Source: a virus. From it: a stretch of DNA of 64,000 nt. Below the pieces are notes generated by a model that saw only the letters and a list, made by a program, of their open reading frames with translations, did no database searches and was not told where the DNA came from. This document shows, piece by piece, positions 12,700 through 63,689 of this stretch. The stretch is taken from the IMG/VR virus record IMGVR_UViG_3300034358_000044, positions 131,736 through 195,735 of that record; one strand, 5' to 3'. Numbering within the stretch: position 1 is the first letter of the stretch; the number at the start of each line of letters is the position of its first letter. The position numbers and the translations under genes are program-made.

Positions 12700-12750
12700 G
12701 GGGGTTGGTTCTCCAGTGAAGACCAAGAGTTGATCTCTTGGGTTCACAGC

Positions 12751-12778
12751 CTTATCCCAATCCCTAGTCTCTTTTTGC
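12751..12778 (-). promoter_or_regulatory. Conserved bipartite phage promoter, copy 2
   Basis: GCAA-AAAGAGACTAGGGAT-TGGGATAAG; lies in the 3' end of the HTH gene. Confidence 0.6.
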
Positions 12779-13462
12779 CAAGCGCCTGAAGAGGGCTTCC
12801 TTGTTGGTTTCCAGCCCTTCCAGGAACTGAGGTGAAACAGTTCCACGACCCAGCTCCAGCCAGGTCACCACTACTGCTCGAAGCTGCTTCCTGGCCGCAC
12901 TGAGTCTTTCACCTAGAGACTGCCAGGCGAGGGAGGGGCTCTTCTTGTCCTCTGCCCAACAGTGGTCCACAAGCTGGGAACAGAAGTCGAAGAAGGGAGC
13001 CCAGGCCTTTGGGTTGTTCGTAGCCTTGGAGAGCGCAGAGAGAGTTTCCTCATCCATTCGCTCGAAGATCTCCACCCACTTGTTGGTAAGGTCCTGTGTC
13101 CAGTTTCCAGCTTTCTCGATTCCGAGGTATGCTTGTGCGGCCGAATACAGCCCCAGACAGGTATTGGTGTCTGGACGGAGAGGCTGCGGGTCTCTCAGTT
13201 CCATGAGGTGTTTCACCAGTCTCATCTCATCTTCGAGCTTCTGGAGACGGCTCGCCATGTTGATGAACGACCTTCTATTCATCGACGGCAGGTCTACCTC
13301 CAGGTCGACTGCAAGGAGATCCACATCTCCACGATCCAATACAGAGCGTCCCGCTTCTACTCTCTTCTTGATGAATCCCCTCTTCACGTAGTCGTGGAGA
13401 GAACGCTGCGACCGTCCAAGCCGTTGACCTGCTTCCTGGAACGTATAGAAGGGACTTCCCAC
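12764..13462 (-). CDS. Excisionase/MerR-like HTH DNA-binding protein with helical C-terminal domain
   Basis: N-terminal YTFQEAGQRLGRSQRSLHDYVKRGFI; GTG start with AGGAGG SD. Confidence 0.75.
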   Translation of the reverse strand: MGSPFYTFQEAGQRLGRSQRSLHDYVKRGFIKKRVEAGRSVLDRGDVDLLAVDLEVDLPSMNRRSFINMASRLQKLEDEMRLVKHLMELRDPQPLRPDTNTCLGLYSAAQAYLGIEKAGNWTQDLTNKWVEIFERMDEETLSALSKATNNPKAWAPFFDFCSQLVDHCWAEDKKSPSLAWQSLGERLSAARKQLRAVVVTWLELGRGTVSPQFLEGLETNKEALFRRLAKRD

Positions 13463-13527
13463 GTGACCTCCTGCAAGCCTACTCTGGTTGTGCTACATCT
13501 TTCGTCTACATCAGGGAGCTACAGCCC

Positions 13528-14571
13528 ATGAACAACGAGTCATCCATTGCCCTGCTAAGCAAGGGCAAGAGCGCAAACATCTCCCCCGAGAAGCTGGAGA
13601 TGATGGGCAAGGAGGCTGCCAACATCTTCATCGAGAAGCACATCTCCCTCAACGAGAGCATCTCGAAGCTGGCTGCGGCACACGATGACATCAGCCAGGA
13701 ACAAATCAAGAGGGTCTGCGAATTCGCCAACACCGCCGTGTACCTGGCGAAGCACGACATGGCCAAGACCGCCGGCTCCTCTTCGAGCTATCCCGAGTTC
13801 GACCTGGCCGATCCGAACCGTGTCATCCAGGACCTCTCGGATGGAACCAAGTCCACTGTCACCACCAAGGTGGATGCTGACTACAGCCGCCTGCCTCAGA
13901 AGGTGAAGACCTCTTCCGCAGAGAAGAAGGTCGTTCGAATTGACCGGATGAAGGGGGCCAATGGGAAGCCGAACTACTGCGTCCATCACTACAGTGATGG
14001 AACCAGTTCCGGCCCGACCACTACAAAGACGGCCTCTCCAGCCGAGATGGCCCTTGAGGAACTCTTCACTTCGAAGACTGCAGAAGACCTCGACTACTCC
14101 AAGGACACTGCCGTCAATGAGGTGATGGCCGCCAAGGAGCAGCTCATCGGCCTCAGGGACCATCTTCGTTCCGCCGGAGAGCAGTTCGACCTGCTGCGCA
14201 AGGAGTCTGCTTCCGAGCTCTACGAGCTCTCCAAGCGCTTCATGATGGACGGGGGCAGCTTTGCCGACATCGGCAAGGTGGCCTACGCTGTCAGCCAGAG
14301 TCAGGACGAGATGGCGAATCTCCTCGACCCCATCATCAAGGGGCTGCTGAAGGAGAAGGTCTCCAGTGCCTCTGAGCTCAAGCTGGGCATCCGTGGGATG
14401 GAGAAGGTGGCTCACCGTACCGTCAATCCCGAGCACCCCATGATGAAGGTGGCAGCCGCCGTCCTCGTGGCCGACAGAGAGATGGAGAAGGTGGCCCAGG
14501 GGCTCAAGGAGGTCACTGCCGGACTCAACGAGGTGAACTCCTTCATCAAGGAGCAGCTCCGTGCTGGGTAG
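13528..14571 (+). CDS. Putative head core/internal protein with K-x-A motifs
   Basis: 347 aa; first gene of the head operon; AKTAG, KTSS, KTAS, KTAE, EKVA x2, MKVAA. Confidence 0.6.
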   Translation: MNNESSIALLSKGKSANISPEKLEMMGKEAANIFIEKHISLNESISKLAAAHDDISQEQIKRVCEFANTAVYLAKHDMAKTAGSSSSYPEFDLADPNRVIQDLSDGTKSTVTTKVDADYSRLPQKVKTSSAEKKVVRIDRMKGANGKPNYCVHHYSDGTSSGPTTTKTASPAEMALEELFTSKTAEDLDYSKDTAVNEVMAAKEQLIGLRDHLRSAGEQFDLLRKESASELYELSKRFMMDGGSFADIGKVAYAVSQSQDEMANLLDPIIKGLLKEKVSSASELKLGIRGMEKVAHRTVNPEHPMMKVAAAVLVADREMEKVAQGLKEVTAGLNEVNSFIKEQLRAG

Positions 14572-14794
14572 ACTCACCAAGCTGGCCCAAAGGTCGGCAC
14601 AGCTTCGTCGGGCTGCTCTTCGTAAGGAGGCAGGCATCCTCGGTGCTGTCAGCAAACAGGTAGGTGGTGCCGCCATCGGCGGAGCGTTGGCTGCCCCTAC
14701 CGCCATTGCAAAGACGAAAGAGTACAAGCAGGGATTCGATCCGGCCTACCAACAGTCCATGCATGGTCCGGCACCAAAGCCTCCAGGAGTTTGA
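14561..14794 (+). CDS. Small head-cluster protein
   Basis: 77 aa; basic N-terminus ending in RKEA, then a Gly-rich hydrophobic stretch. Confidence 0.55.
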   Translation: MLGRLTKLAQRSAQLRRAALRKEAGILGAVSKQVGGAAIGGALAAPTAIAKTKEYKQGFDPAYQQSMHGPAPKPPGV

Positions 14795-14795
14795 C

Positions 14796-15416
14796 ATGAC
14801 CGCCGAAGAGATTCTCGCAGCTGCCAACGAGGCGAACCCTGAGTACGTCGAGAAGACGGCGAACGCTCTGTTCGTTCTGCAGCATGGAGAGCCAGAGTTC
14901 GTTGACGAGATGATGAAGGACATCAACATCATCACCGCAGTCACGATGGAGAAATCTGCAGGAGTGAAAGACGTTTTGAGGCGTGGTTGGGGCAGTACTG
15001 GGGGGAAGCTCCCTGACGCAGCTCAGGGTGTGCTGATTGCCGGTGCAGCTTCAGTCGCTCTCGGACTGGGGGCAGCAGTGGCAGGAGACCTCTACGATGC
15101 TGCCAAGAGAGGCCTCACCAGGAAGAGGAACTACGATGCCATCGTCAAGGCGAACCCGGACCTTCAGCGCCACGACAAGAAGGAGCTCATCAACTCCTTC
15201 TCCACTCTTCACCGCTTCGCTCCTGAGTTCACTGCAGATCCTCGCCTGGGTGGTGAGCTCCTGGGGGCCATGGCCTCTTTGGGAGGCGGTGCTGAAGGGG
15301 GGCAGCGTGCCCTGGTTGAGGAGCTCCTCAACTCCAGGAAGACGTTGGTTGACGCCCGGAAGAACCAGTTCTCTCTCGGCAGGCCCGATGCCAGCATGAT
15401 GGGATTCAAGAAGTGA
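14796..15416 (+). CDS. Head-cluster protein with hydrophobic hairpin
   Basis: ATG at 14796 with AGGAG SD; EKTA and EKSA motifs; GVLIAGAASVALGLGAAVAG. Confidence 0.65.
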   Translation: MTAEEILAAANEANPEYVEKTANALFVLQHGEPEFVDEMMKDINIITAVTMEKSAGVKDVLRRGWGSTGGKLPDAAQGVLIAGAASVALGLGAAVAGDLYDAAKRGLTRKRNYDAIVKANPDLQRHDKKELINSFSTLHRFAPEFTADPRLGGELLGAMASLGGGAEGGQRALVEELLNSRKTLVDARKNQFSLGRPDASMMGFKK

Positions 15417-17023
15417 TCAAGCAGCTTTCCTATCTCGGTCGAACCGAGCAAGGCATCTTCGCTCAAGCGCTCTTCGGGAGTGCTGGGGCCTTCGAGAAGA
15501 CTGCCGGCGCTCCTCCGTTTGCCAACTTGGAGACCGGTGACGAGCTGAGGAAGGCTGTCTCCAGCATCACCAAGAAGGACAGAGAAGCGTTCTGCTACGT
15601 CCTGGTGAACGCCTTGGGAGCTGGAGAGTTCTTTGGCTCCAACATCAACGCGGACTGGTTCCCGTGGAATGCTCTCTCCCACCAAGGGGATGACTACGGG
15701 TACAAGACGTTCTTGAGGGCGCACGCCTTCTCTCACCACAAGAACAAGGATCCTCAGCGCGCCTTCGGTGTACCCATCTCCTCCCTACTGAACCCGCGCA
15801 TGAAGCGGGTCGAGCTCATCATCAAGCTCGACAGGGAGAAGGCGAAGCTGGAGCAGGCGGACGGCATCATCAGCCGCATCGACGCCGGAGAGTTCCCTGA
15901 CGTCTCGATGGGCTGCAAGGTTCCATTCGACGTCTGCTCCATCTGCGGTAACCACAGCAAGACGAAGGACGACTACTGCAAGCACATGAGGCCCGACCCG
16001 GAAGACCGGGACAAGTGGGGGCCGAACAAGATTCTCCCAGATGGACGGCGCATCTGCGTCATCAACACGCTTCCTAGGTTCTTCGACATCTCCTTCGTCT
16101 TCATTGGAGCGGATAAGACCGCCAAGGTGATGATGAAGTTGGCCTCAAGAAACATCGTCACTGGCCCAATCATTCTGTCGGCCGATGCAGGTGCTCAGTT
16201 CTACGAGGGTATTGGTAAGCAGAAGACCGCCTCCGTTCGACAGGAGCTCCCCAAGATGGCCTCCCAGAAGAAGGTCTCAGAGATTCTGAAGGACATTCCT
16301 GCTGGCACCTTCTCCATGAAGAGGCTGTCCTCTCTGGAGAGGGCCGAGCCCACCATCGGTAAAAAGGCGCTCAAGAAGCTTTCCCAGCATCCCCTGTCTG
16401 CTGCCCTCGGGGCCACTGCTGCGATGGGCATCGTCCTCAAACCGGAGGAGTTCCAGTATCTGGTGTTGGAGAAGATGGGTGAAGCAGAGCTGGCAGACAT
16501 CCTCTCCAATGAGACTCTGGTCTTCCACAAGACCGCATCCTTCCACCATACGGACATCGAGTTTATCAAGGAGGCGGTCGATTCCTCCATTTCTCTTCTT
16601 CGAGACGTGGTGAAAGAGCGGACAGTCTTTGGGGAGCCGTTCGTGCTTCGAACGGCTGCTCCTTCAGAAGCCCCCAAAAACCCTCTTCCCACACCTTCTC
16701 CGGTCGAGCATTCTCTTCTGGACAAGATCAGCGCGGCATACAATGGTTACCGTTGGTCGCTGATGATGAAGCTGTCGGAAGCGTCGGAGATGGTGGAGAG
16801 CGACTCAAGGTTGCGAGAGGCTGTACTGGGAGACGGACTGGTGAACATGTTTTCAAAGACGGCCAGTCGTTCCCCACTCATCACTCGCGACTCGGTAGCA
16901 TACATGATGGGCGCTCATTTCTCTGACCGTAGTGTGTTGTCGAATGCTGCAGTCGTCGATGCGATTGCAGAGAGCAACAAGGACTTCCTCAATGGTGAGG
17001 GGTTCTCGGCCCAGGGGTTCTGA
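15413..17023 (+). CDS. Prohead (maturation) protease, HK97/assemblin fold with Zn-finger insert and scaffold-like C-terminus
   Basis: NINADWF; FSHH (candidate catalytic His); DVSMG (candidate catalytic Ser) followed by CSICG...YCKH; FFDISFV..GADKTA; lies upstream of the scaffold and capsid genes. Confidence 0.8.
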   Translation: MIKQLSYLGRTEQGIFAQALFGSAGAFEKTAGAPPFANLETGDELRKAVSSITKKDREAFCYVLVNALGAGEFFGSNINADWFPWNALSHQGDDYGYKTFLRAHAFSHHKNKDPQRAFGVPISSLLNPRMKRVELIIKLDREKAKLEQADGIISRIDAGEFPDVSMGCKVPFDVCSICGNHSKTKDDYCKHMRPDPEDRDKWGPNKILPDGRRICVINTLPRFFDISFVFIGADKTAKVMMKLASRNIVTGPIILSADAGAQFYEGIGKQKTASVRQELPKMASQKKVSEILKDIPAGTFSMKRLSSLERAEPTIGKKALKKLSQHPLSAALGATAAMGIVLKPEEFQYLVLEKMGEAELADILSNETLVFHKTASFHHTDIEFIKEAVDSSISLLRDVVKERTVFGEPFVLRTAAPSEAPKNPLPTPSPVEHSLLDKISAAYNGYRWSLMMKLSEASEMVESDSRLREAVLGDGLVNMFSKTASRSPLITRDSVAYMMGAHFSDRSVLSNAAVVDAIAESNKDFLNGEGFSAQGF

Positions 17024-17079
17024 CCTCGAAGACGGCCACCGACCAGAAGACTCGCAGTTCAAACCCCAGGAGCAAATAC

Positions 17080-17859
17080 ATGGATCCCCAGCTTGCAGCA
17101 ATCTACGGAACGGCGAATGTCGATGAGGCAGACCTGGAGAAGCTCGCCGCAGCCGAGCTCGCAGAAGGCCTCGCCAACGAAGAAGAGGGCACGGAAGACC
17201 TGACCGAGGAGGACCTGGAGGCGATCGCTCAGGACGTCCTCAACGGTTCCGACGAGGGCGACGAGGGTCAGGAGAAGACCTCTGAGGCGCAGGAGAAGCT
17301 GGCCGAGGCCGACTACCTCGGCCGCGTGATGGCGCACTCGTACGTCAACGAGCTCCGCAGCATCGAGAAGACGGCCGAAGATGCAGCGCCCGCCAAGGCC
17401 AAGGAGCCGGGACGTGTGCGCCAGGCAGCAGGCAAGGCCTGGGGTGCGGTCAAGGGTGGTGGCAAGCGCTACGGCGAGCTGATGCGTGGTGGCAAGGCGG
17501 GCGAGGCAGGTGAGATGGCAGGACGTCGTGCCGGCAACTCGCTCAAGGGTTTCAAGCAGATGCGTGGTGAGGCGCTGAAGTCTCTCGGCGCTCGTGGTGG
17601 TACTGCCATCGGTGCCGCTGGTGCCGCCTACGGCGCCAAGAAGCTGTATGACAAGGTCAAGAAGTCGTCGGCCGTCGACACGCTCGTCGAGCAGCGCGCG
17701 CTGGAGATCCTCGAAGCCAACGGCATCGATCCGAACCAGCTCTCCCCGGTCGAGGGGCAGACCAAGATGTCGGATCCCCGTGAGGCGCTGGCCAACGAGG
17801 TCGAGCAGAGGGCCTGGAACCTGCTCGGCCAGTACGGAGTGGTTCCCGACGAGGAGTGA
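17080..17859 (+). CDS. Putative scaffolding/core protein (acidic)
   Basis: Very acidic N-terminus; EKLA x2, EKTA, KKSSA; ADYLGRVMAHSYVNEL; AGGAG SD. Confidence 0.6.
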   Translation: MDPQLAAIYGTANVDEADLEKLAAAELAEGLANEEEGTEDLTEEDLEAIAQDVLNGSDEGDEGQEKTSEAQEKLAEADYLGRVMAHSYVNELRSIEKTAEDAAPAKAKEPGRVRQAAGKAWGAVKGGGKRYGELMRGGKAGEAGEMAGRRAGNSLKGFKQMRGEALKSLGARGGTAIGAAGAAYGAKKLYDKVKKSSAVDTLVEQRALEILEANGIDPNQLSPVEGQTKMSDPREALANEVEQRAWNLLGQYGVVPDEE

Positions 17860-17874
17860 CCTGAAGGGGTAGCG

Positions 17875-18327
17875 ATGCCGGAATGGATTCACCAGAGAGC
17901 AGACCACATACGGGCCAAGAACCCAGGCATGTCTGAATCTCAATCCTTCGCCATCGCTACCCAGCAGGCTCATGCATCAGGCAAGGCCCCTCGGGGGTTC
18001 GGTACTCCCGAGGGGAAGAGGGAAGCGAAGAAGAAGTACGATGAGCCGAAGTCCGCCTACAAGAAGACAGCGGACCCCGGCCACATCGCCAAGACTTCCT
18101 CGGTCATGGTGATGTGGGCTGGGTTCTCTGATGAACTCCAGAAGATCGCATTCGCAGGTGCTTCAACGGTTTCCAATGTCACCAAGCCAATACCTACTCC
18201 AGGTATGAAACTGCCGAAGTTGACAGCAAAGCCGGTGGTAACGGAGCCGGAATCACCGGCCTCAAAGTTGGACCTCTTGGGAAGTTCTCGAACGCCACAA
18301 CCGCCGCCTGTGACTTCAGGTGGGTAA
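17875..18327 (+). CDS. Head-cluster protein with internal FSDELQKIA tag
   Basis: 150 aa; KKTA, AKTSS, GFSDELQKIA; Pro-rich C-terminus. Confidence 0.6.
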   Translation: MPEWIHQRADHIRAKNPGMSESQSFAIATQQAHASGKAPRGFGTPEGKREAKKKYDEPKSAYKKTADPGHIAKTSSVMVMWAGFSDELQKIAFAGASTVSNVTKPIPTPGMKLPKLTAKPVVTEPESPASKLDLLGSSRTPQPPPVTSGG

Positions 18328-18340
18328 CAAGGAGCAACAG

Positions 18341-19705
18341 ATGCACTCCAAGCTTGCTGGCCACCTGCCTCTTCAGGACATGATTGCAGCAACTCTGGAG
18401 TCTGCCCGCTCCAAGATCGCTGCGGCGGAAGAGAAGGACAAGGAGAAGTCGGACAAGGTGAAGAAGCTCGTCGACTACGAGAAGAAGGAGCACGGAGGGA
18501 AGATCCCATCCGTCAAGGAAGAGGAGGACGAGCACAAGGAGAAGAAGTCCTCCGCCGTCCTCGACTTCGACGACCCGGACTCGATGGAGAAGCTCGCTGA
18601 GGCTCTGGACGAGCTGGGCGAGGAGCTCCTCAAGCAGGCCGACTCCGTCGAGAACGGCAAGGAGTCCAAGCAGGGTGGAGAGCAGCTCGCCACCCAGTCG
18701 CCCACTGGCGGCAAGCAGGTCTACACGGGCGCCAAGGCGACCGCCAAGCACCAGGTCACCGCTGGTGGGGTGAAGGCCACCAAGGACAACCCTGGTGCAG
18801 CCACTGCCAACGAGACGGATGAGAACCGTGCCCCTGGCGGCAATGGGGCCAAGTACCCCGACAAGGGCGTCCTGAAGACCGGGGCCGCTGCTCTTCAGGC
18901 TGTCGTGGCGGAGATCGCCCAAGAGAAGAGGGCTGGTGCCGGAGAGACGGTGATGAAGGGTCTCGGCAAGGCTGTCGGGACTACCGCTCGTGTGGCGGGC
19001 AATCACCCCCATCTCGCAGCCACTGCAGGGGGTGCTGCTGTGGGTGGAGTTACCGGTGCGATTGCCGGTGGACCCGGCAACCGGCTCTCTGGAGCCGGCA
19101 AGGGGGCTCTCACTGGGGCTGTCATTGGAGGTGGTGGGTCTCAGTTGAGGGAGCGTGCTGCAGAGGCTCTCGCCAAGAACCCACACTTCCTGAGTGCCGC
19201 CGGGGAGGCTCTGTCCAAGAAGGGTTCGGCTGAGAACTCTGCGGTCGGCTTCATCCTCAACAAGCTGGCCGAGTTCCAGGGCGGTGGAGAGGTTCTGAAC
19301 ACCGGCTCCGTGGCGATCCCCAGCAACGAGGGCCGGCAGCTCATCGCCAACAACTCTGCCCCCGTCTCGGCGACCAAGCGTGAGGCGAAGAGCCCTGGGC
19401 GGAAGCAGCTCTCCGAAGTTCTCACCGAGCCGGCTCAGACGGCCAGCACGGACAACACGGTTCAACAGAATCTGCGGAATGCCTCAAAGGGAGGCGTGAA
19501 GATCGCAGCGGTGAAGTCCTACCTCAGGAAGGTGTCTGAGGCAGGATGCGTGTGCAATGGCCAGGGTGAGTGCGACTACTGCCGCATGAAGTCTTCTGTC
19601 GAGAAGAAGCGTGCGGAGAAGAAGGTCAAGCAGAGCCTCGGCATGCCTCCGATGGGTCCAGCCCCTGCGGCTGGAGGTCCCATGGGTGGCCCCAAGATGA
19701 TGTGA
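18341..19705 (+). CDS. Putative scaffolding/internal head protein with Gly-zipper insert
   Basis: ATG at 18341 with AAGGAG SD; SKLA, SKIA, EKLA, LKQA, EKRA, NKLA, VKIA; C-terminal CVC..ECDYC. Confidence 0.6.
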   Translation: MHSKLAGHLPLQDMIAATLESARSKIAAAEEKDKEKSDKVKKLVDYEKKEHGGKIPSVKEEEDEHKEKKSSAVLDFDDPDSMEKLAEALDELGEELLKQADSVENGKESKQGGEQLATQSPTGGKQVYTGAKATAKHQVTAGGVKATKDNPGAATANETDENRAPGGNGAKYPDKGVLKTGAAALQAVVAEIAQEKRAGAGETVMKGLGKAVGTTARVAGNHPHLAATAGGAAVGGVTGAIAGGPGNRLSGAGKGALTGAVIGGGGSQLRERAAEALAKNPHFLSAAGEALSKKGSAENSAVGFILNKLAEFQGGGEVLNTGSVAIPSNEGRQLIANNSAPVSATKREAKSPGRKQLSEVLTEPAQTASTDNTVQQNLRNASKGGVKIAAVKSYLRKVSEAGCVCNGQGECDYCRMKSSVEKKRAEKKVKQSLGMPPMGPAPAAGGPMGGPKMM

Positions 19706-19740
19706 GAGACCCGATTCAGAAGACCAACCAGGAGTTACAC

Positions 19741-20708: not shown

Positions 20709-21830
20709 ATGAGCACCGTTCCCGCAAAGGTTCTGAACGATCTCTTCTTCGAAAAGATCGGATCTGCAGAGGGCAAGGACAAGATCGCCGAGTTCGGCGG
20801 TACGTACATCCGTGACCGTCTGCGTGAAGTCTCGTTCGCCAGGAAGATCATCCCGCCCACCCCGGTGCAGCGCAGCGAGCTGCAGCGTTCGGTGAACCAC
20901 GACACCCTGGTGAAGATCGTCGACATCGAGCCCGACTCGAAGGCGATGAGCCTCACCTTCCGTGGCCAGCCCACGGCCCGGTTCATTCGTGCGCCGCGCT
21001 TCGAGATCCCCTTCTTCACCATCTCCTCGGAGAAGTTCGAGAAGACGGAGCAGGAGCTCCTGGCGTACGAGATGCCCATCACCAAGATCATCGAGGAGAA
21101 CTCGGTCAAGGACATCCAGGCGATCGAGGACCGGCAGTTCCTCATCTACGTCGAGGCCTGCATCCAGGCGTACCAGCTCGACAGCAACAACGGAGTCGCG
21201 ACCTCCTTCAACAGGACCCGCGTCCTGGCCGGTACGGTCGTCAGCTCCTCCGTGGTCAAGAGCGAGGGTGCTCTGGCTGCGTCGGCCGACAACTTCATCG
21301 TCCACCCCCTGCTGAAGCCCGACTTCATCAAGCTCAAGCAGGTCATGCACCGTCGCTTCCTGCGTGCTGAGCGCATCCTCATCACCGAGCCCGACTACGA
21401 CAACCTCTCGGCCTGGACCATCCAGGACGTGTGGAGCATCGCTGCCGAGACGGCGACCGAGGGCTGGAAGGCCAACACGGTGGTCGGCCTCAAGATCATC
21501 CGCACCATCAAGACGAACATCCTCCGCGAGGGCAACATCTACTGCTTCGCGGCTCCCGAGTTCTTCGGCCGGTTCTACATCCTGAACCAGACGAAGTTCT
21601 ACATCGACAAGATCGCCAACCTCATCACCTGGCAGTCGTGGGAGGACATCGGGATGGGCTTCGGCAACATCGCCGCCGTGGTCAAGCTGGAGCTCTACTC
21701 CGGCTCGGTCACCCCGGGTGCCACCGACACCGGCTTCTGGGCCGAGCTGCCCAAGGACGAGGACGACCTGTCGCCCATCAACAACAGGGCCGACAAGGGC
21801 CTGACCACTCCGGAAGTCGACCAGTTCTGA
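20709..21830 (+). CDS. Major capsid protein (HK97 fold)
   Basis: 373 aa; extreme C/G codon bias; SFARKIIPP, E-loop-like beta region, long helix ITKIIEENSVKDIQAIEDRQF; follows protease and scaffolds; followed by a terminator. Confidence 0.8.
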   Translation: MSTVPAKVLNDLFFEKIGSAEGKDKIAEFGGTYIRDRLREVSFARKIIPPTPVQRSELQRSVNHDTLVKIVDIEPDSKAMSLTFRGQPTARFIRAPRFEIPFFTISSEKFEKTEQELLAYEMPITKIIEENSVKDIQAIEDRQFLIYVEACIQAYQLDSNNGVATSFNRTRVLAGTVVSSSVVKSEGALAASADNFIVHPLLKPDFIKLKQVMHRRFLRAERILITEPDYDNLSAWTIQDVWSIAAETATEGWKANTVVGLKIIRTIKTNILREGNIYCFAAPEFFGRFYILNQTKFYIDKIANLITWQSWEDIGMGFGNIAAVVKLELYSGSVTPGATDTGFWAELPKDEDDLSPINNRADKGLTTPEVDQF

Positions 21831-38189: not shown

Positions 38190-38396
38190 CTACTCGGCCT
38201 TCTGGACCTGCTCTGCCTGAGGCCCCTTGGCGCCCGTGGTGAGTTCGTAGGTGACGCGATCCCCCTCTGCCAGGGTGCGGAAGCCCTTCATCATGATGGA
38301 GGTGTGGTGGACGAAGACGTCCTTGCCACCCGAGTCCGGCACGATGAAGCCGAAGCCCTTTGCGTCATTGAACCACTTCACAGTGCCTGTTGCCAT
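38190..38396 (-). CDS. cspA: Cold-shock domain RNA chaperone
   Basis: [18 protein letters not shown]...DVFVHH...GPQAEQV with RNP1/RNP2; AAGGAG SD. Confidence 0.95.
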
Positions 38397-55044: not shown

Positions 55045-55046
55045 CC

Positions 55047-56027: not shown

Positions 56028-56033
56028 TGACTG

Positions 56034-56534: not shown

Positions 56535-56710
56535 GCTACAACGTTCTGGAGTGCCTCCATGCCGTGATGGAGAAACCGTATACGCCTGAGACGGTTCACA
56601 TCACGCCGCTTACCGACCTGGTGCCGGTGCTGCGGTGTTACCAGTGTGGGGCGCTCCTCTACGTGATGGTTCCTGCTGGCACCAAGCCACCGCCCAAACC
56701 TGAACTCTGA
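56531..56710 (+). CDS. Small Zn-ribbon-like protein
   Basis: GTGA overlap; ECLH...RCYQCG. Confidence 0.5.
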   Translation: MSYNVLECLHAVMEKPYTPETVHITPLTDLVPVLRCYQCGALLYVMVPAGTKPPPKPEL

Positions 56711-57222: not shown

Positions 57223-57258
57223 GAGCTAAGAAGAAAGGGCGACGTCCACCCCTTCTTC
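57221..57258 (-). terminator. Hairpin terminator with TTAGC tail
   Basis: GAGAGCTAA then GAAGAAAGGG...CCCTTCTTC; convergent genes. Confidence 0.65.
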
Positions 57259-57264
57259 AACGTG

Positions 57265-57708
57265 CTACTCCGCCTCTGCAGCCTCGGCCATCTCCGACAG
57301 GGCGGAGAACGGCTGATGAGTCAGAGGTGCATCACGCTTCGCTGCAGCTTCGTTCTTGCGACGTTCCTCCTCCAGGAGGATTCGCTCAGGAGGGAGCTGC
57401 TTGGTGCCCTTCTTCAACGAGGGACGGATGATGAGGGTGGTAGGCGGCTCGACGGGTCGAGTCTCTTCCTCCTTCACTGGCACCTTGCTCGTCCGATGAA
57501 TGGAGCTCTGGAGCTCGCGCTTCTTCGTCTCCAAGTGCTTCACCTCGTTCTCCAGTCGCATCTTCTTCTGGGCCATCTCAGAAGCAGTGCGATCCTGGTT
57601 CTGGAGCTGCCTGACCTTGAGAGCGGTGTCCGCTCGGAGGTCATCGACCTTGGCCTCGATGAGGCTGGTCACAGCCTTCACGAACCACTCAGGAATGTGA
57701 AACTGCAT
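57265..57708 (-). CDS. Coiled-coil hypothetical protein
   Basis: 147 aa; AAAGGAG SD; has its own promoter and terminator. Confidence 0.65.
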   Translation of the reverse strand: MQFHIPEWFVKAVTSLIEAKVDDLRADTALKVRQLQNQDRTASEMAQKKMRLENEVKHLETKKRELQSSIHRTSKVPVKEEETRPVEPPTTLIIRPSLKKGTKQLPPERILLEEERRKNEAAAKRDAPLTHQPFSALSEMAEAAEAE

Positions 57709-57756
57709 GTGTCTTGCTCCTTTGAAGCGTAGAGAGAAGGATTCTCTCGACTCTTC

Positions 57757-57783
57757 CTTATGCCAAGAGAGTGAGACTTTTGG
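57757..57783 (-). promoter_or_regulatory. Conserved bipartite phage promoter, copy 4 (spacer 1 nt short)
   Basis: CCAA-AAGTCTCACTCTCT-TGGCATAAG. Confidence 0.65.
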
Positions 57784-57784
57784 T

Positions 57785-57832
57785 GAGAGCTAAACAGCGA
57801 GGCGATGTCGCTCAACCACCGCCTCAAGCTGT
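57785..57832 (-). terminator. Hairpin terminator with TTAGC tail
   Basis: GAGAGCTAA then AACAGC-GAGGCG...CGCCTC-AA-GCTGTT. Confidence 0.6.
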
Positions 57833-58053
57833 TACTCCGCCATCCTGCGAATATCATCCAACCGGATGATCGCAGTGACGAAGTCGACCCTGTTCGCACG
57901 GGCGAACCTGAAGACCTCCAGCGGATCGAGCTGGAAGTCCTCCGCGTCCTTCACGCGGTCGGGGTGGAGATGGTTCACTTCGATGGCACCCTTTGCCATC
58001 CGCTGAGCTCCTTCAGCCCATGCGTTGAACCGTTGGGTTTTGCACTTGGACAT
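57832..58053 (-). CDS. 73-aa hypothetical protein
   Basis: MSKCKTQRFN start at 58053 with AGGAG SD (the ORF-track start at 58278 runs through the promoter). Confidence 0.65.
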   Translation of the reverse strand: MSKCKTQRFNAWAEGAQRMAKGAIEVNHLHPDRVKDAEDFQLDPLEVFRFARANRVDFVTAIIRLDDIRRMAE

Positions 58054-58183
58054 AGAACTCTCCTGAGCCTGTGGCTCGGTGTCTTCCCATTTCACCTGTC
58101 CTGGTGTCGGCCTGCGTGAGCGGCCAATGTTCCCGGGGGTCAGAGCCCGGTAATCAGAAAGAGAAAGTTCCCTCTGATATACC

Positions 58184-58211
58184 CTTATGCCGAAACCCAC
58201 GTGACTTTTGC
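58184..58211 (-). promoter_or_regulatory. Conserved bipartite phage promoter, copy 5
   Basis: GCAA-AAGTCACGTGGGTTT-CGGCATAAG. Confidence 0.7.
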
Positions 58212-58236
58212 TCTTGATGGTGGCTAGCCTTGGGGC

Positions 58237-58905
58237 ATGTCGAAGATCGCAGACGACATCGCCAACATGACCCGGCACCTCTACAACAACCTGCAGAGGG
58301 AGAAGGCGGACATGGGGATAGTCCCCAATGAGCCTATACCGACGTCCATCTCTGTCCCTGCCCTTGTCAGGGTACGCACTTCAGCGAACGTCCATGTCGA
58401 TGGGATTGCTGCAGGCAGGATGGCTGAGCACATCATGCCCTACCCCGAATACGTCTCTGGAACAGTCTATGAGACGGAAACGGTATACGGTGAGGATGGC
58501 TTCGCGGTCGGCATCTCAGCGCCACACAATGGTTTCATCCACGACGAGGTGTCCCAGTTGAGCGAGCAGCTCTACACCTACAAGCTCATCACCCATCCTG
58601 ATGGGCGGCAGACCTATGAGCGGGTGCCCTTCGATCCAGCCACCGCGAGGAGCGGAGATGTGGCCGTCCCCAGGCGCGCCCCCTTCATCAAGAACGGAGA
58701 GCAACCGGGCATGGGCTCCGTGGCCTTGGAGCACATCCTTCGGAACACGGAGGCGGCCAGGTCCAGACGTGCCCTCTCCGACGCCCTGGAGGCCCAGGCT
58801 GAGGAGGAGAGGCACCTGAAGGCCCTCGGCTACCCCCAGAGGCCTGATGACGAGCCTGAGGCCAAGCCAGTGCCCAAGCGCTACGGACGGGTGTTGGAGC
58901 CCTGA
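58237..58905 (+). CDS. Hypothetical protein
   Basis: 222 aa with typical codon bias in its terminal parts. Confidence 0.6.
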   Translation: MSKIADDIANMTRHLYNNLQREKADMGIVPNEPIPTSISVPALVRVRTSANVHVDGIAAGRMAEHIMPYPEYVSGTVYETETVYGEDGFAVGISAPHNGFIHDEVSQLSEQLYTYKLITHPDGRQTYERVPFDPATARSGDVAVPRRAPFIKNGEQPGMGSVALEHILRNTEAARSRRALSDALEAQAEEERHLKALGYPQRPDDEPEAKPVPKRYGRVLEP

Positions 58906-59058
58906 ACATGTGCAGAAACCTCTGCACAGCATGAGGCTGTTTCAGTGGGACTGTACTTCCATCCAGCGTTGAACACTGCAAGCCCACGGTACAGCGCGAG
59001 TTCCGGTACTCAAACGCTCCAAGCGTTCCCAGGAGGGTGGGGTTACCAGAGCCCCACC

Positions 59059-59226
59059 ATGAACCTCTCCTTCGCTCTCTCGGTTGCGGTGTGCATCGCT
59101 GGGGTCATCCTCTACTTCGTCTCAGCGGCTTCGAAGCCTCAAGAAGTGGGACGCATCATGTTCGCCATGGGTCTTCTCGCAACGCTCTTGAAGTTCGCTG
59201 GCGAAGCCTCTCTTCGAGTTGGTTGA
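59059..59226 (+). CDS. 55-aa two-TM membrane protein (holin-like size/topology, unproven)
   Basis: MNLSFALSVAVCIAGVILYFVS...IMFAMGLLATLLKFAG; ATG at 59059. Confidence 0.55.
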   Translation: MNLSFALSVAVCIAGVILYFVSAASKPQEVGRIMFAMGLLATLLKFAGEASLRVG

Positions 59227-59256
59227 GAGCTAACAACAAGGAGGGTGGCCTCCTTG
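59225..59256 (-). terminator. Hairpin terminator with TTAGC tail
   Basis: GAGAGCTAACAA then CAAGGAGG-GTGG-CCTCCTTG. Confidence 0.7.
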
Positions 59257-59261
59257 GTGCT

Positions 59262-59627
59262 TCAGGCTCGCGCCGCCTGCTGCGGGAAGCCGGTCTTGAG
59301 CGCGGCCTCGACCGCCGCGATGTTGCTGGTCTCCTTCATCAGCAGGAAAAGATCGAGCTGCATGCTCTGCGTGTAGAACGTCATGAGGTCGACGAACGTC
59401 ATCGGGGTGATCGCCTCCATGATGAACCCTTCGCAGAGGTCCCTGAGGGCGTTGAGCACGACGGCCACAGACGCCTCGGCTTCCGCCTGGTGCGTCTTGC
59501 AGCACTCACCTTGAGTTCTCATCGCCTTGTGCCAGATCGCCTCCACCTGCAAGAACTTGTCGATGGCCTTCGTCATTTGAATCGTCGCACCCTTGAGGTT
59601 CATCGGGTCGATAGCTTCGCGGCTCAT
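59262..59627 (-). CDS. Helical hypothetical protein
   Basis: 121 aa; AAAGGA SD; has its own promoter and terminator. Confidence 0.65.
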   Translation of the reverse strand: MSREAIDPMNLKGATIQMTKAIDKFLQVEAIWHKAMRTQGECCKTHQAEAEASVAVVLNALRDLCEGFIMEAITPMTFVDLMTFYTQSMQLDLFLLMKETSNIAAVEAALKTGFPQQAARA

Positions 59628-59670
59628 GGTGATTCCTTTGCCCAGTGGGCGTTAGAGTTCACTGCACATC

Positions 59671-59698
59671 CTTATGCCGAATGTGCGAGCTCTTTTGA
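59671..59698 (-). promoter_or_regulatory. Conserved bipartite phage promoter, copy 6
   Basis: TCAA-AAGAGCTCGCACATT-CGGCATAAG; overlaps the upstream terminator tail. Confidence 0.7.
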
Positions 59699-59734
59699 GA
59701 GCTAAGAAACATTGTCCAGACGTCTGGACAATGT
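59697..59734 (-). terminator. Terminator formed by a perfect 26-bp palindrome plus TTAGC tail
   Basis: GAGAGCTAAGAA then ACATTGTCCAGACGTCTGGACAATGT. Confidence 0.65.
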
Positions 59735-59759
59735 CCTTCCCCATCGGTGAGGGAGTGGG

Positions 59760-60611
59760 TCAGAGGAGCTTGTTCATCGCGTCGATGGCGCGCAGCATCT
59801 CTTCCCGGGGCAGACCCGAACGCGGACCACCAGCGATGCCGGCGTGTCCACCTGCCTCAGGACCCCACAGCTCCTGTGCCACCGTCACGCAGCTCACCCC
59901 CGGAATGGGATCAGCCAGCGAGATGGTGACTGCCTTGGACTTGGCGTTGTAGCTCACCACCGCCTTGGCCACCTTCCCGCCCGGGGTCAGGTAGAGGTGG
60001 TTCGTGAACGCCTCAGCCTCCCGAGCGATGACGCCCTGGTCGGAGATGCCACGGAAGCTGGAACGGTTGAGCTCCAGCTGCGCCTCCTGTGCGGCAGCCC
60101 CAGCCTCGATGAGCTCAGGGTCATTGAGGAAGAGCCTCCACAGGACGATGGTGGCCGCGTCCACCCACGCCTCTGCGCTGACGACCGAGCCGTCCCGGGG
60201 AGCGTAGAGCTTGTTCTTCTCGCTCCACGCCCAGAAGGCGTAGAGCCGCGCCAGGTCTTCCTCGCTTGCACCGGACTGGGCCAGCTTGTGCGGCCCCTTC
60301 GTGTCAACGAAGGCCGCCAACGTCCAGAAGTCATCGTAGTTGGGCTTCGTCCCGAGGACGGCCAAGACGCCGCCGAGAGCGTCCAAGTCGACGTGACTGA
60401 GACCGATGACCTCCACCTCTCGCCACTCGGGCTGGAGGCGGTTCGGGAAGGTGCAGGGCGCCGGGTTCGCGCTGCGGCTGCCGTGGTGAGCGAGGGTGCC
60501 GTGGCTGCCCTCGACAACACTGTCACCGTACTCGGCCTCCACGGTGACGCTCTTGAGACCGGCGATGGCGGCGGTGAGGTTGGCAGCAACAGACGAAAGA
60601 AGGATTTGCAC
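59760..60611 (-). CDS. DHH-superfamily-like phosphoesterase
   Basis: TLAHHG, LSHVDLDALGG, FVDTKG, C-terminal GGHAGIAGG (DHHA1-like); GTG start at 60611 with AGGAG SD. Confidence 0.6.
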   Translation of the reverse strand: MQILLSSVAANLTAAIAGLKSVTVEAEYGDSVVEGSHGTLAHHGSRSANPAPCTFPNRLQPEWREVEVIGLSHVDLDALGGVLAVLGTKPNYDDFWTLAAFVDTKGPHKLAQSGASEEDLARLYAFWAWSEKNKLYAPRDGSVVSAEAWVDAATIVLWRLFLNDPELIEAGAAAQEAQLELNRSSFRGISDQGVIAREAEAFTNHLYLTPGGKVAKAVVSYNAKSKAVTISLADPIPGVSCVTVAQELWGPEAGGHAGIAGGPRSGLPREEMLRAIDAMNKLL

Positions 60612-60673
60612 GTGAGACTCCTGTCCCAATGGGACGGAAAGCAGAGGAAGCAGAATGCTTCTTGCTCTATGTC

Positions 60674-60701
60674 CTTATGCCTAGACCAGGAGCGTATTTG
60701 C
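60674..60701 (-). promoter_or_regulatory. Conserved bipartite phage promoter, copy 7
   Basis: GCAA-ATACGCTCCTGGTCT-AGGCATAAG. Confidence 0.65.
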
Positions 60702-60705
60702 GACT

Positions 60706-60742
60706 GACAGCTAAGAAGCGGGGGTCGGTGCCCCTTGCTTCT
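60706..60742 (-). terminator. Hairpin terminator with TTAGC tail
   Basis: GACAGCTAA then AGAAGCGGGGG...CCCCTTGCTTCT. Confidence 0.65.
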
Positions 60743-60828
60743 CACTTCGGGTCGTTGAAGACCACATACCTCACCGCGATGATCGCAGCGAGGCACAGCA
60801 GTATTCTCAGGGTGAGGAGGGCCGTCAT
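60742..60828 (-). CDS. 28-aa single-TM peptide
   Basis: MTALLTLRILLCLAAIIAVRYVVFNDPK; ATGA overlap with the upstream gene; stop abuts the terminator. Confidence 0.45.
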   Translation of the reverse strand: MTALLTLRILLCLAAIIAVRYVVFNDPK

Positions 60829-61055
60829 GACTTCACCTCGCAGCTCTTCCTCATGGCCTTCAGCGCCTCGGTCTTGCAGTTGAACTTGCAGACCTTTTCC
60901 CACTTGGTGATGACGTAGCCCGGTGCCTTGTCCCTCTCACACCGAGGCTCACAGCTCTCCAAGTGCTTCTTCACCACTTGCTGGGCACAAGAGGGTTCGT
61001 AGCGCCCACTGGCTGCCACCATGAGCGCAGCCAGGACAGCACTGAGGGTGCTCAC
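60825..61055 (-). CDS. Small secreted Cys-rich protein
   Basis: Hydrophobic N-terminus; six Cys including two CxxxC pairs. Confidence 0.6.
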   Translation of the reverse strand: MSTLSAVLAALMVAASGRYEPSCAQQVVKKHLESCEPRCERDKAPGYVITKWEKVCKFNCKTEALKAMRKSCEVKS

Positions 61056-61480
61056 AGCTTCACCGAGCAGTACTCGATGGACGACCAGACTGCGTCCTTG
61101 TCGCAGAGGCTTTCACAGTTGGGCAAGCCCCCATGCAGCTTGCATCCCCAGCGGCATGACGTGCTGAACTCAACGAACGATTGAGAGCAGGAGAGGTCCA
61201 CGGGGATGAGCTTGCCTTCCGTGTTCTCCACCATCCTCAGTTCGCATTTGGAGGCGAGAACCTCGTCACCGGCCACTGCGCACTTGGAGGCACAAGCTTT
61301 GATGCCCTCAGGTGTGGTGGCGTTGTGCAACTTCCCTTCGTTGCAGGCTTGGAAGCACCTCGGTAGCCCCTCCTTCATGAACTCCGAGAAGCAGGCCTTC
61401 TGCTGCCACGCCCTCTTCTCTTGTTCCGTCTGGCAGCCAGTGAGAACCAGCGTGAACAGCACCACGATGTAGCTCTTCAT
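61052..61480 (-). CDS. Cys-rich lipoprotein
   Basis: MKSYIVVLFTLVLTGC lipobox; 12 further Cys, with four CxxxC pairs; AGGAG SD. Confidence 0.75.
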   Translation of the reverse strand: MKSYIVVLFTLVLTGCQTEQEKRAWQQKACFSEFMKEGLPRCFQACNEGKLHNATTPEGIKACASKCAVAGDEVLASKCELRMVENTEGKLIPVDLSCSQSFVEFSTSCRWGCKLHGGLPNCESLCDKDAVWSSIEYCSVKL

Positions 61481-61570
61481 GACGCACTCCTGTGCTCCCA
61501 GTGGGAGCTGTTGAGGGTTTGGCTTCAGAGCCTTGTCCCTACAACCAGGAGTGAATTGCTCTATGAGGTC

Positions 61571-62548
61571 TCACTCTTTCTTTGGGTAGTCCGCCTTGAT
61601 CGAGAGGGCTCCTTCCTCTATGGCCTTATCGATGAGGACCATGAGTATGGGGCCTGCACTCTCAAGGTTGAGGGCACTTCGAGCGCACTTCATACAGATG
61701 AAGTGTCTCGCGATGGAGTGCCTGAGGAGGTGAATCTCGTCGTACTCACTGGAAAGTGTACGAGTTCTCACCTCCTCTCCACAGGCTCGGCAATGGAACT
61801 CGACCTTCAAGATGCGGGAGAGCGAGGCTTCCACCTTGAGGACGCGCTCAATGATGGGCCGCGTACCGTGGAACGGCTCTGTAGGAGTCGTGCCCTTATG
61901 AAGGTTCTGGAGATAGCTGTGGAGCTTCTCCTTCCACCAGTCGGTCTCATGGTCGATGTCCGACTCTTTGTGAAGCTTGAGAGCAAACTTCGCCAGGTCG
62001 AGTCTGTCCATCTTCTGGAGCTCAAGCCTCCTCTCCATCTTCGGTTTGAGCTTCGCCTTGGCTGCGGCCTTGCGGATAGCTCTCAGGCGTGCGGCTCTTT
62101 CCTGCTGCTCCTCCTGCTGTTGAACGCGCTCTTCGTGATCCTGCTGCATCCGTATTCCCGAGAGGCACTCAGGACAGGTTACCTGTTCCACCTTCTCGGC
62201 CATTGTGAAGAGGGGGATGTGCGAGAAGTGATGAGGCCAATGAATCATCAGCCGTTTCGCGTTGCAGCTATGACAGAGTGTGTAGGGAGTACCAGTTTCA
62301 ACACTGCTTGCCTGAAACAGGTCCGAGAGATGGTATCTCTTGTTGCTGAGGCACCCATCGCATCGATAAAGAGGCTGAACCCGTCTTTCCTCCTTGCCGA
62401 GTGCCTCCAAGAGGGCGTCGCCCGTAAGCAGCTCATCTTTTCGATCCGGTCTCAGCTCATGGAATCGGACTGTGCGCCAAGCGTGCTGGGAGTCACCAAG
62501 TCTTATACGTAGTGCCTCCAAGAACTCTGCATCTGGATACAAACCCAT
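61571..62548 (-). CDS. Multi-CxxC (Zn-finger) hypothetical protein
   Basis: CDGC, CHSC, CPEC, CRAC, CMKC plus a coiled-coil region. Confidence 0.65.
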   Translation of the reverse strand: MGLYPDAEFLEALRIRLGDSQHAWRTVRFHELRPDRKDELLTGDALLEALGKEERRVQPLYRCDGCLSNKRYHLSDLFQASSVETGTPYTLCHSCNAKRLMIHWPHHFSHIPLFTMAEKVEQVTCPECLSGIRMQQDHEERVQQQEEQQERAARLRAIRKAAAKAKLKPKMERRLELQKMDRLDLAKFALKLHKESDIDHETDWWKEKLHSYLQNLHKGTTPTEPFHGTRPIIERVLKVEASLSRILKVEFHCRACGEEVRTRTLSSEYDEIHLLRHSIARHFICMKCARSALNLESAGPILMVLIDKAIEEGALSIKADYPKKE

Positions 62549-62600
62549 GTGGATCCCTCTTTCCGCCCTCTTGAGGGCGTGGGTGAAATGGTACTCCGTC

Positions 62601-62628
62601 CTTATGCCGAATCTGATGTCGCATTAGC
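62601..62628 (-). promoter_or_regulatory. Conserved bipartite phage promoter, copy 8
   Basis: GCTA-ATGCGACATCAGATT-CGGCATAAG, 53 nt upstream of the 62548 start. Confidence 0.65.
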
Positions 62629-62742
62629 GTCACCCTGATTGACTCTGGGCTGTGCCTCGAAGGACGATGTGAGACGCAGCAGCTACTTGGGGGTGGGCGC
62701 AACGCATGCAGGAATGCCACGCACGGTAGCCAGGAGTCACCC

Positions 62743-62892
62743 ATGCTCGATGAGAACTCTGAGACTAAGGTCGAAGGTGAGCGTCTTCAATCGCTCTTCG
62801 AGTATCTCTCCACCATGAGGCAAGAGTCGCTGGCAAAGGTGGATGAAGTCCTCAAGAAGGTGAAGGCCAAGAAGAAGCCCTCAGAGGGCTAA
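62743..62892 (+). CDS. 49-aa hypothetical protein (below the ORF-track cutoff)
   Basis: AGGAG SD; MLDENSETKVEGERLQSLFEYLSTMRQESLAKVDEVLKKVKAKKKPSEG; typical codon bias. Confidence 0.55.
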   Translation: MLDENSETKVEGERLQSLFEYLSTMRQESLAKVDEVLKKVKAKKKPSEG

Positions 62893-62918
62893 CAAAAGAG
62901 AGTGGTGTTCTCTCTCTT
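62884..62918 (-). terminator. Hairpin terminator with TTAGC tail
   Basis: GAGGGCTAACAA then AAGAGAG-TGGTGTT-CTCTCTCTT. Confidence 0.65.
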
Positions 62919-63116
62919 GCCTTCCCACGTGAGCTTGTGGCTCATGGGTCCCTGAAGCGGGCACTCGTAAGTGCTCCGCCTGGGCCAACTGCTTGCGGTA
63001 CTACTTACCGGTACTACTTGGGGTGTTGCTTTTGTCTGGACCCTATCCCAGCTTGAAACAGAGGGCACTCCCCATCGCCGGTTGGTTCCGGCCTGCGAGC
63101 GGCTATACTCTGCCGC
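62893..63116 (-). ncRNA. Candidate ~225-nt structured non-coding RNA
   Basis: Bounded by promoter copy 9 and a TTAGC terminator; at least five hairpins; no ORF with a usable SD. Confidence 0.5.
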
Positions 63117-63122
63117 TACATT

Positions 63123-63150
63123 CTTATGCCGAAAGGCGAGTCACTTTTGC
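63123..63150 (-). promoter_or_regulatory. Conserved bipartite phage promoter, copy 9
   Basis: GCAA-AAGTGACTCGCCTTT-CGGCATAAG. Confidence 0.7.
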
Positions 63151-63153
63151 TCT

Positions 63154-63190
63154 GACGGCTAACAACAAAGGGGAGTCCGTTCTGCACTCC
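63154..63190 (-). terminator. Hairpin terminator with TTAGC tail
   Basis: GACGGCTAACAACAAA then GGGAGT-CCGTTCTGC-ACTCCC. Confidence 0.65.
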
Positions 63191-63200
63191 CCCCTGCTGC

Positions 63201-63626
63201 TCAGCGCAGAGGCACGCCACCGAAGCCGTTGGTGTTGCCCGGCGCCGTGGCCCCCACGACCTGCTCCTTGCCCTGCAGCGCCTTCTTCACGGCCTGAGCG
63301 ACCTTGCGGTCGAACTCCGCCTCGGCGGCCTCCTGCGCCTTGCGCTCACGCATCGCCAGCCCCTCGTGAGCGAGCTTGCTGAGCTCGTCCACGTCGTTGA
63401 TGAGAACGCCCTTGCTGTCGTAGATGCCCGAGAGGGTGGCCTTGCTGGGCTTCTTCTTCGACTTGACGAAGTCGATGATGGCGGGCGCGGCCACCAGCGC
63501 CAGGGGCAGCAGCGTCATCAGCACCAGTCCTGCAGTGCTGGGGGCCTCGACCTCGACCGGCTCGGGCTCGGTGGCGTCGTGGATGGCGTTCTTCACCGCG
63601 TTGGTCAGCTTGTTCATGAAGGTCAT
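63201..63626 (-). CDS. Single-TM hypothetical protein
   Basis: 141 aa; AGLVLMTLLPLALVAAPAII; has its own promoter and terminator. Confidence 0.65.
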   Translation of the reverse strand: MTFMNKLTNAVKNAIHDATEPEPVEVEAPSTAGLVLMTLLPLALVAAPAIIDFVKSKKKPSKATLSGIYDSKGVLINDVDELSKLAHEGLAMRERKAQEAAEAEFDRKVAQAVKKALQGKEQVVGATAPGNTNGFGGVPLR

Positions 63627-63689
63627 AACGTCTCCAACTCCCTGTGGGAGTAACGAACGAAGGACTTGAGTGTCCTTTGCTGTTACTGC

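Follow-up and report, generated by a model that had tools for sequence, protein, structure and literature searches.

The window analysed here, by which we mean the whole stretch of 64,000 nucleotides, is the last 64 kb of the 195,735-bp IMG/VR virus record IMGVR_UViG_3300034358_000044, which has a G+C content of 58.6%, is estimated to be complete and is classed as linear. On its minus strand, small genes follow one another in cassettes, and the leaders of several of these genes contain a short hairpin that carries a conserved CAYWG sequence and adjoins the Shine-Dalgarno (SD) sequence. Six such hairpins had been claimed in a first-pass annotation of the window, which took them for a candidate translational operator, and all six read as written there (Table 1). 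It is well supported that the hairpin is an element of the RNA that is linked to the ribosome-binding site. More tentatively, we read it as a translational operator that is specific to this phage lineage.

Transcription units and hairpin anatomy

A promoter-like motif recurs on the minus strand, which consists of an A-rich block (CAAAAG-like), about 17 nt, the sequence T[CT]GG[CG]ATAAGG and then NNGT[GA]. Over the whole genome the core of this motif was found 19 times on the minus strand and not once on the plus strand, and in the window the cores lie at 63697, 63130, 62608, 61539, 60681, 59678, 58191, 57764, 12758 and 8876 (minus strand). Because the same core is present, in the same orientation, in four related genomes whose G+C contents range from 51 to 65%, the motif suggests, at the level of sequence, that transcription of these units depends on a phage-specified polymerase or sigma factor, or on a very conserved one of the host. 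At the end of the small-gene cassettes stand hairpin terminators, whose U-run is interrupted and leads into a conserved tail (TTGTTGTTAGC / TTCTTAGCTCTC; several sites at 57240-63240 of the window). The next promoter comes directly after this tail, and the region is made up of repeated terminator-promoter cassettes. Each copy of the CAYWG hairpin sits behind a conserved minus-strand promoter or a variant of it, and the hairpin promoters number about eight among roughly 25-30 conserved minus-strand promoters.

The hairpin had been described as a pentaloop. Its centre is indeed conserved, but the outer C and G pair with each other in every minimum-energy fold (ViennaRNA), which leaves an A-Y-W triloop. 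At the six sites of the first-pass annotation the triloop is ACA (two sites), ACU (three) or AUU (one), on stems of 4-6 bp. The five hairpins located at 57-64 kb are stable according to the fold predictions (-4.6 to -9.1 kcal/mol), with a mean pair probability of 0.96-0.99 within the leader. Further members are present at position 4148 of the whole record (GCCC-CACCG-GGGC, then AGGAG, behind the promoter variant GGGAGAAGG) and at position 20886 (CCTT-CACTG-GAGG, a weak hairpin with the SD within its 3' arm), and one copy, at 62930 of the window, lies in a unit without a gene. Comparison of nine copies shows that the closing pair is C-G in eight and that the next pair is C-G in seven and U-G in two, while the outer pairs change on both sides. 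A count over the nine copies agrees with the claim that the stems covary around a constant loop: 85% of the cells are paired, a value that was not reached in any of 500 shuffles. Since a stem was a condition for choosing the sites, this count is circular in part.

The hairpin keeps its position relative to the ribosome-binding site rather than the promoter. Regardless of stem length, four loops (first base at 63646, 60631, 59647 and 58073) begin exactly 20 nt upstream of the start codon, and in seven of eight sites this distance is 19-23 nt. The distance between the hairpin and the 5' end, on the other hand, varies from 15 to 101 nt across the leaders, if transcription is taken to begin 13 nt beyond the first base of the promoter core. 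In the six strong members the SD is unpaired, and GGAG (AGGA at 59640) follows 1-3 nt after the 3' arm; the end of the 3' arm is 9-13 nt away from the start codon. The loops of hairpins located closer to the 5' end in these leaders are unrelated (for example ACUCAA, AUCAA and UCC), and hence the conservation of the loop is specific to the hairpin adjacent to the SD. At 12710 the fold prediction agrees with another element of the first-pass annotation, an alternative pairing with the 5' end of the leader: UUCAC pairs there with GUGAA and outcompetes the hairpin.

The hairpins are not what chance alone would give. When the 130 pentaloop hairpins that precede an SD and a start codon in roughly the non-coding DNA of the 195.7-kb genome were distributed over 256 loop classes, CAYWG was represented by 9 sites, compared to a class mean of 0.51 (sd 0.87) and 4 sites for the runner-up. 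In a looser count, which also accepted an SD and start codon inside genes, CAYWG was only level with other loop classes; the rival high classes of that count, however, lay almost wholly in coding sequence, whereas the CAYWG sites lie in leaders. Moreover, 10 of the 29 CAYWG pentamers near a ribosome site are flanked by at least three pairs, against about 5% expected. Hairpins of any sequence next to an SD numbered 13 versus 9.2 +/- 2.5 in shuffled leaders, with 33 of 300 shuffles giving as many. This shuffled-leader test gives little support to the idea that SD-adjacent hairpins are generally typical of these leaders, and the weak enrichment implies that the real signal is the CAYWG hairpin rather than leader hairpins in general.

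In the record, the hairpin sites are found at 189.8-195.4 kb, at 4.1 kb and at 20.9 kb, plus one at 144.4 kb. If the ends of the record adjoin, all of them except the one at 144.4 kb would belong to one leftward-transcribed block of small genes. Terminal repeats are present in two related genomes.

Table 1. Promoter-like cores, hairpins and translation starts of the minus-strand units, in positions of the window unless stated otherwise (SD, Shine-Dalgarno sequence).
Feature	Position	Strand	Energy (kcal/mol)	Pair probability	Unit, product or remark
Promoter-like core GGGATAAGG	63689-63697	-			63626 unit
Hairpin ACUCC-CACAG-GGAGU	63637-63651	-	-7.4	0.97	
SD GGAG	63632-63635	-			
Start codon ATG	63624-63626	-			141-aa membrane-like protein
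Hairpin UGAGC-CACAA-GCUCA	62930-62944	-			Gene-less promoter-to-terminator unit; 14 of 15 bases as in the 58065 hairpin
Promoter-like core variant GGGACAAGG	61531-61539	-			61480 unit
Hairpin GCUCC-CACUG-GGAGC	61494-61508	-	-9.1	0.98	
SD GGAG	61487-61490	-			Second CACAG before the SD
Start codon ATG	61478-61480	-			142-aa protein
Promoter-like core GGCATAAGG	60673-60681	-			60611 unit
Hairpin GUCC-CAUUG-GGAC	60623-60635	-	-5.8	0.99	
SD AGGAG	60618-60622	-			
Start codon GTG	60609-60611	-			283-aa protein
Promoter-like core GGCATAAGG	59670-59678	-			59627 unit
Hairpin GCC-CACUG-GGC	59640-59650	-	-4.6	0.96	
SD AAGGA	59634-59638	-			
Start codon ATG	59625-59627	-			121-aa protein
Promoter-like core GGCATAAGG	58183-58191	-			58053 unit
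Hairpin GAGC-CACAG-GCUC	58065-58077	-	-5.8	0.99	End of a 139-nt structured leader
SD AGGAG	58060-58064	-			
Start codon ATG	58051-58053	-			73-aa protein
Hairpin YUC-AAA-GGAG	57715-57730	-			57708 gene
Promoter-like core GGGATAAGG	12750-12758	-			12699 unit
Hairpin UCUU-CACUG-GAGA	12710-12722	-	-1.4	0.02	SD GGAG within the 3' arm
Start codon ATG	12697-12699	-			148-aa protein
Hairpins YUC-AAA-GGAG	Record 2709, 2378 and 46706				In leaders

The copy at 62930 belongs to a unit that runs about 240 nt from promoter to terminator (about 63130 to 62885, minus strand) and lacks a convincing open reading frame, the longest having 10-18 codons. This unit and the leader of the 58053 gene have a promoter and hairpin block in common, which makes the unit a candidate small RNA or, alternatively, a decayed cassette. 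It also carries the direct repeat AAGTAGTACCG twice (62885-63130).

Two other sites were considered as members and set aside. The one at whole-record position 12563 is doubtful, its "stem" being the U-run of a terminator. The other is the 13-mer TCTTCACTGGAGA at 10433-10445, which is identical to the 12710 site but lies within the first codons of a plus-strand gene; one repeat of a 13-mer is expected by chance in 64 kb. A second recurrent leader hairpin, YUC-AAA-GGAG, has a C-G-closed AAA triloop and the SD in its 3' arm, and four copies of it are present in the genome.

Downstream genes and related phages

The eight proteins encoded downstream of the hairpins are unrelated to one another, and a Pfam scan of seven of them matched no family. 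Thus, gene duplication does not explain the motif. No relatives of the 141-aa and 148-aa proteins were found in IMG/VR, and no homolog of the 121-aa protein among 5.8 billion proteins. The 142-aa protein (61052-61480, minus strand) is Cys-rich and has a lipoprotein-type signal (LTGC); next to its gene, a small Cys-rich open reading frame overlaps the stop codon of that gene. The leader of another gene, which encodes a 325-aa protein (61571-62548, minus strand) with many CxxC pairs, zinc-ribbon-like and without a Pfam match, has a different hairpin adjoining the SD (CGCCCUC-AAGA-GGGCG).

The 283-aa protein (59760-60611, minus strand) belongs to a large family without a Pfam name, for which 558 matches were obtained. 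Many phage contigs encode members of this family, and so do long contigs that carry cellular genes, some of them in bins labelled Patescibacteria; the relatives P0006 and P0007 sit in cellular-looking contexts. In one metagenome search, relatives of the protein reached at most 52% identity, and the gene is absent from five related genomes. Its closest ortholog, the only ortholog of a hairpin gene that was compared, is found on contig L016, has 72% identity and is embedded in the same terminator-promoter layout. The leader of this ortholog contains GUCC-UUUCU-GGAU directly before AGGAG, with the start of the loop again at a distance of 20 nt from the GTG. In more distant orthologs the SD is often immediately preceded by some hairpin of unrelated sequence.

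According to its capsid protein (75-90% identity), the phage belongs to a large clade whose members are uncultivated and about 130-200 kb in size. Among cultured phages, the capsid protein has similarity only to those of Salmonella phage Arash and some Vibrio phages (29-31% identity), and a megablast search of the window against the phage collection gave no match to a cultured phage. Four near-complete relatives have the same promoter and leader layout, and in none of them did we find a CAYWG hairpin before an SD or any other outstanding loop class. A covariance model of the hairpin (R1; 25 positions, 5 pairs), a check that the first-pass annotation had called for, recovered the training sites in the window; further matches did not precede a start codon, except for one to the CAAAG-type leader of the 57708 gene, which was weak. 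Over 744 kb of relatives, no R1 match was followed by an SD and a start codon. A scan of the window against Rfam (both strands, gathering scores) matched no family, and no tRNA genes were found in the window.

Comparison with known systems

In concept, the nearest system is found in Cluster K mycobacteriophages, which have start-associated sequences (SAS) and extended SAS (Pope et al. 2011, PMC3203893). Just upstream of the start codon of 11-19 non-structural genes, these phages carry the SAS, an asymmetric 13-bp sequence (GGGATAGGAGCCC) that includes the SD, and about half of the copies have an inverted repeat of 17 bp just upstream (PMC3203893). As in the present case, a short element precedes the starts of a subset of genes, in one orientation and in a specific group of phages, and the presumed function is translational (PMC3203893). 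The inverted repeats of Cluster K, however, have conserved arms and a variable spacer, whereas here the arms vary and a centre of 3-5 nt is conserved. Furthermore, GGGATAGGAGCCC has no sequence similarity to the hairpins, which fall outside the definition of the SAS.

With respect to mechanism, the nearest analogy is the operator of gp43, the DNA polymerase of phages T4 and RB69, a single autoregulatory site that consists of a hairpin-loop of 16-18 nt with a conserved UAAC loop and works in concert with the ribosome-binding site (PMC3014915). Both have a conserved loop and upper stem just upstream of the ribosome-binding site, which in the case of gp43 is read by a phage repressor protein; unlike the gp43 operator, the site is shared here by about eight unrelated genes. 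In T4, inhibitory hairpins are also present at the translation initiation regions of the genes e, soc, 49 and I-TevI (PMC3014915). The members at 12710 and record position 20886, as well as the YUC-AAA-GGAG class, resemble these in having the SD in the 3' arm. The six strong members differ from them, since they leave the SD free and conserve the loop instead; among the CAYWG members, sequestration of the SD is seen only at 12710 and record position 20886.

The first-pass annotation had drawn an analogy with RegA and Csr/Rsm control. RegA of T4 is a small protein that acts as a repressor at the translation initiation regions of some 30 early mRNAs; its binding sites lack structure, are rich in A+U and overlap the AUG (PMC3014915). 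The hairpins described here are G+C-rich and lie at about 9-25 nt from the start codon, and the likeness to RegA is limited to the logic of the regulon that had been proposed, one reader for many early genes. CsrA binds GGA presented in the loop of a hairpin. The CsrA/RsmA systems are similar to ours in that a hairpin next to, or including, the SD is present on several mRNAs and that there may be an RNA decoy. Here, the loops (ACA, ACU, AUU and ACC) do not contain GGA, which occurs only in the SD or the 3' arm, and the candidate decoy, unlike those of CsrA systems, holds one copy. We tested the hairpins for the RNA features that define the two systems and found neither set, and the hairpins are therefore not part of a RegA or CsrA system.

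The lambdoid nut/boxB element is a 15-nt hairpin with a GNRA-like, purine-rich pentaloop, accompanied by boxA, whose position is set by the promoter or terminator and which is bound by the N protein through an arginine-rich motif. Two of our hairpins have the same 5+5+5 dimensions, but their loops are CACAG and CACUG and their position is tied to the start codon. Finally, the target of T4 RegB is unpaired GGAG in early ribosome sites. SD sequences with GGAG are present here and are unpaired at six sites; the search for RegB itself, with a silent control, gave no match.

What the hairpin may do

Taking these results together, we consider it possible, with a probability of roughly 0.4, that the hairpin is a lineage-specific translational operator, linked to the start codon and located before the first gene behind about eight promoters. 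The top of the helix and the loop would be read in a sequence-specific manner by a trans-acting factor, most likely a phage or host RNA-binding protein. Bound close to the SD, this factor would alter access of the 30S subunit and in this way co-regulate unrelated early genes, and the operator would probably be a repressor site. The analysis shows the anatomy of the hairpin, its enrichment, its fixed phasing to the start codon and its confinement to one lineage; that the RNA folds as predicted in vivo, that a reader exists and which sign its effect would have are inferred. A reader is favoured by the conservation of the loop and the helix top, by the contrast with the other hairpins of the leaders, and also by the phasing and the confinement to this lineage.

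Several observations weigh against an operator. The hairpin class is not uniform, as the members at 12710 and record position 20886 are weak and have the SD inside the stem. In the ortholog on contig L016, the stem, its position and the SD persisted while the loop did not. The search for a reader brought up no candidate either: the CsrA profile (PF02599) had no match in the phage genome, with positive controls in E. coli, B. subtilis and T. maritima; the RegA profile (Pfam PF01818) had none in the 195.7-kb genome and the RegB profile (PF10715) none in the phage genome, although the controls of both were also silent in every genome; and 40 other phage proteins compared with Pfam contained no RNA-binding or nuclease family. 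One ortholog with another loop, together with the lack of a candidate protein, fits structure alone as well as a reader that has co-evolved. The gene-less unit holds a single copy of the hairpin, unlike known sponge RNAs. No RNA run is among the sequencing runs listed with this phage sequence, and contigs from four other peat runs are identical to it save for two changes, both outside the hairpins, so that there is no variation to be read at the hairpins. It should also be noted that eight or nine short sites, chosen partly by eye, may tempt one to overread their regularity. The cold-shock protein that had been suggested as a possible reader is encoded at 38199-38395 (minus strand; Pfam CSD, 97.5 bits), and its gene, which has a terminator upstream and an SD of its own, lacks a CAYWG hairpin; nothing ties the protein to the hairpins. 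Hairpins in non-coding DNA with the complementary loop C-W-R-U-G revealed no partner RNA that recurs, and inspection of the first codons by eye brought up no sequence complementary to the loop that would make a pseudoknot.

The evidence is divided between an operator and a purely structural hairpin. The latter, which we regard as possible if somewhat doubtful and as only a little less likely than an operator, would act only in cis: it would insulate the SD from the rest of the leader, and may block decay that depends on the 5' end or stack on the helix formed by the SD and the anti-SD. The likeness of the loops would then reflect a shared origin or a mild preference for a 3' arm that starts with GG and a 5' arm that ends with CC. 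On the one hand, in the ortholog with 72% identity the loop differs but the hairpin, its position and the adjoining SD are preserved, some hairpin of unrelated sequence precedes the SD in many distant orthologs of the 283-aa gene, and the SD lies outside the helix at six hairpins; in addition, the 3' arms resemble the SD (GGGAG, GGAGA) and the 5' arms the anti-SD, which limits the sequence space. On the other hand, structure alone does not explain why one loop class occurs at 9 sites when the mean is 0.5, or why the loops of the 5'-proximal hairpins in the same leaders vary. Neither does it fit well with the slight excess of SD-adjacent hairpins of any sequence, or with relatives that have the same leader architecture and no preferred loop.

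An operator could also be part of a more elaborate, unrecognised regulon, an extension that we consider unlikely. In such a regulon, a sequence-specific RNA-binding protein of phage or host would read the C-G-closed A-Y-W triloop exactly 20 nt before the starts of about eight unrelated early genes, the gene-less transcript, with the copy at 62930, could serve as a decoy, and reader and loop would have co-evolved in no other lineage than this one. Such co-evolution would explain the different loop of the 72% ortholog.

Alternatively, the hairpin might be a processing signal, recognised by a host or phage endoribonuclease or cut in its A-C-N loop, so that leaders of variable length are trimmed to one uniform 5' end just ahead of the SD, or decay of the early messages begins. 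Several toxin-type RNases cut at AC-containing triplets, and the loops are ACA, ACU or ACC in eight of nine copies; the hairpin also keeps a fixed distance to the start codon although the leaders differ greatly in length. A precedent is RegB of T4, with which a phage inactivates early mRNAs at ribosome sites (PMC3014915). We nevertheless regard processing as improbable, because no RegB match was obtained (with a silent control), no nuclease family was seen among the scanned proteins, and triloops are poor substrates for RNases specific for single strands.

An absence of function, the sites being a chance cluster or remnants of one duplicated leader, seems highly improbable. It is true that the sites were known before the motif was defined, and that in two pairs (63637 with 61494, and 58065 with 62930) the likeness extends beyond the loop. 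The test over 256 classes, however, allows for the choice of motif and still leaves CAYWG alone, and the downstream genes and the remaining leader sequences are unrelated. We give least credence to a site that acts at the level of DNA, either an inverted repeat for a transcription regulator or a recombination site that shuffles promoter-gene cassettes. The six strong stems are fully Watson-Crick and the region does consist of repeated cassettes, but two weak members need G-U pairs, the position follows the start codon instead of the promoter, and the shared sequence of 5-9 nt is too short for homologous recombination. A DNA operator is unlikely above all because the arms vary while the asymmetric centre is conserved, the opposite of what is seen in a dimeric DNA operator.

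To our knowledge, multi-gene translational control in phages is understood in molecular detail almost only from the RegA and RegB systems of T4, and the start-linked repeats of actinobacteriophages, first noticed 15 years ago, have no explanation that we know of. The present signal is a compact one and stands out clearly in the statistics: the triloop is conserved while the stems vary, the phase to the start codon is fixed, and the sites lie before promoter-proximal early genes only. Both the phage and its host are uncultivated, the identical sequence being present in several peat metagenomes, and this sets a practical limit; the hairpin itself is small enough to be tested directly with synthetic leaders. 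If a reader exists, it would form a new RNA-protein recognition pair with the hairpin and provide a portable translational switch. If there is no reader, the element would still represent a design rule for the insulation of ribosome sites in phage leaders.

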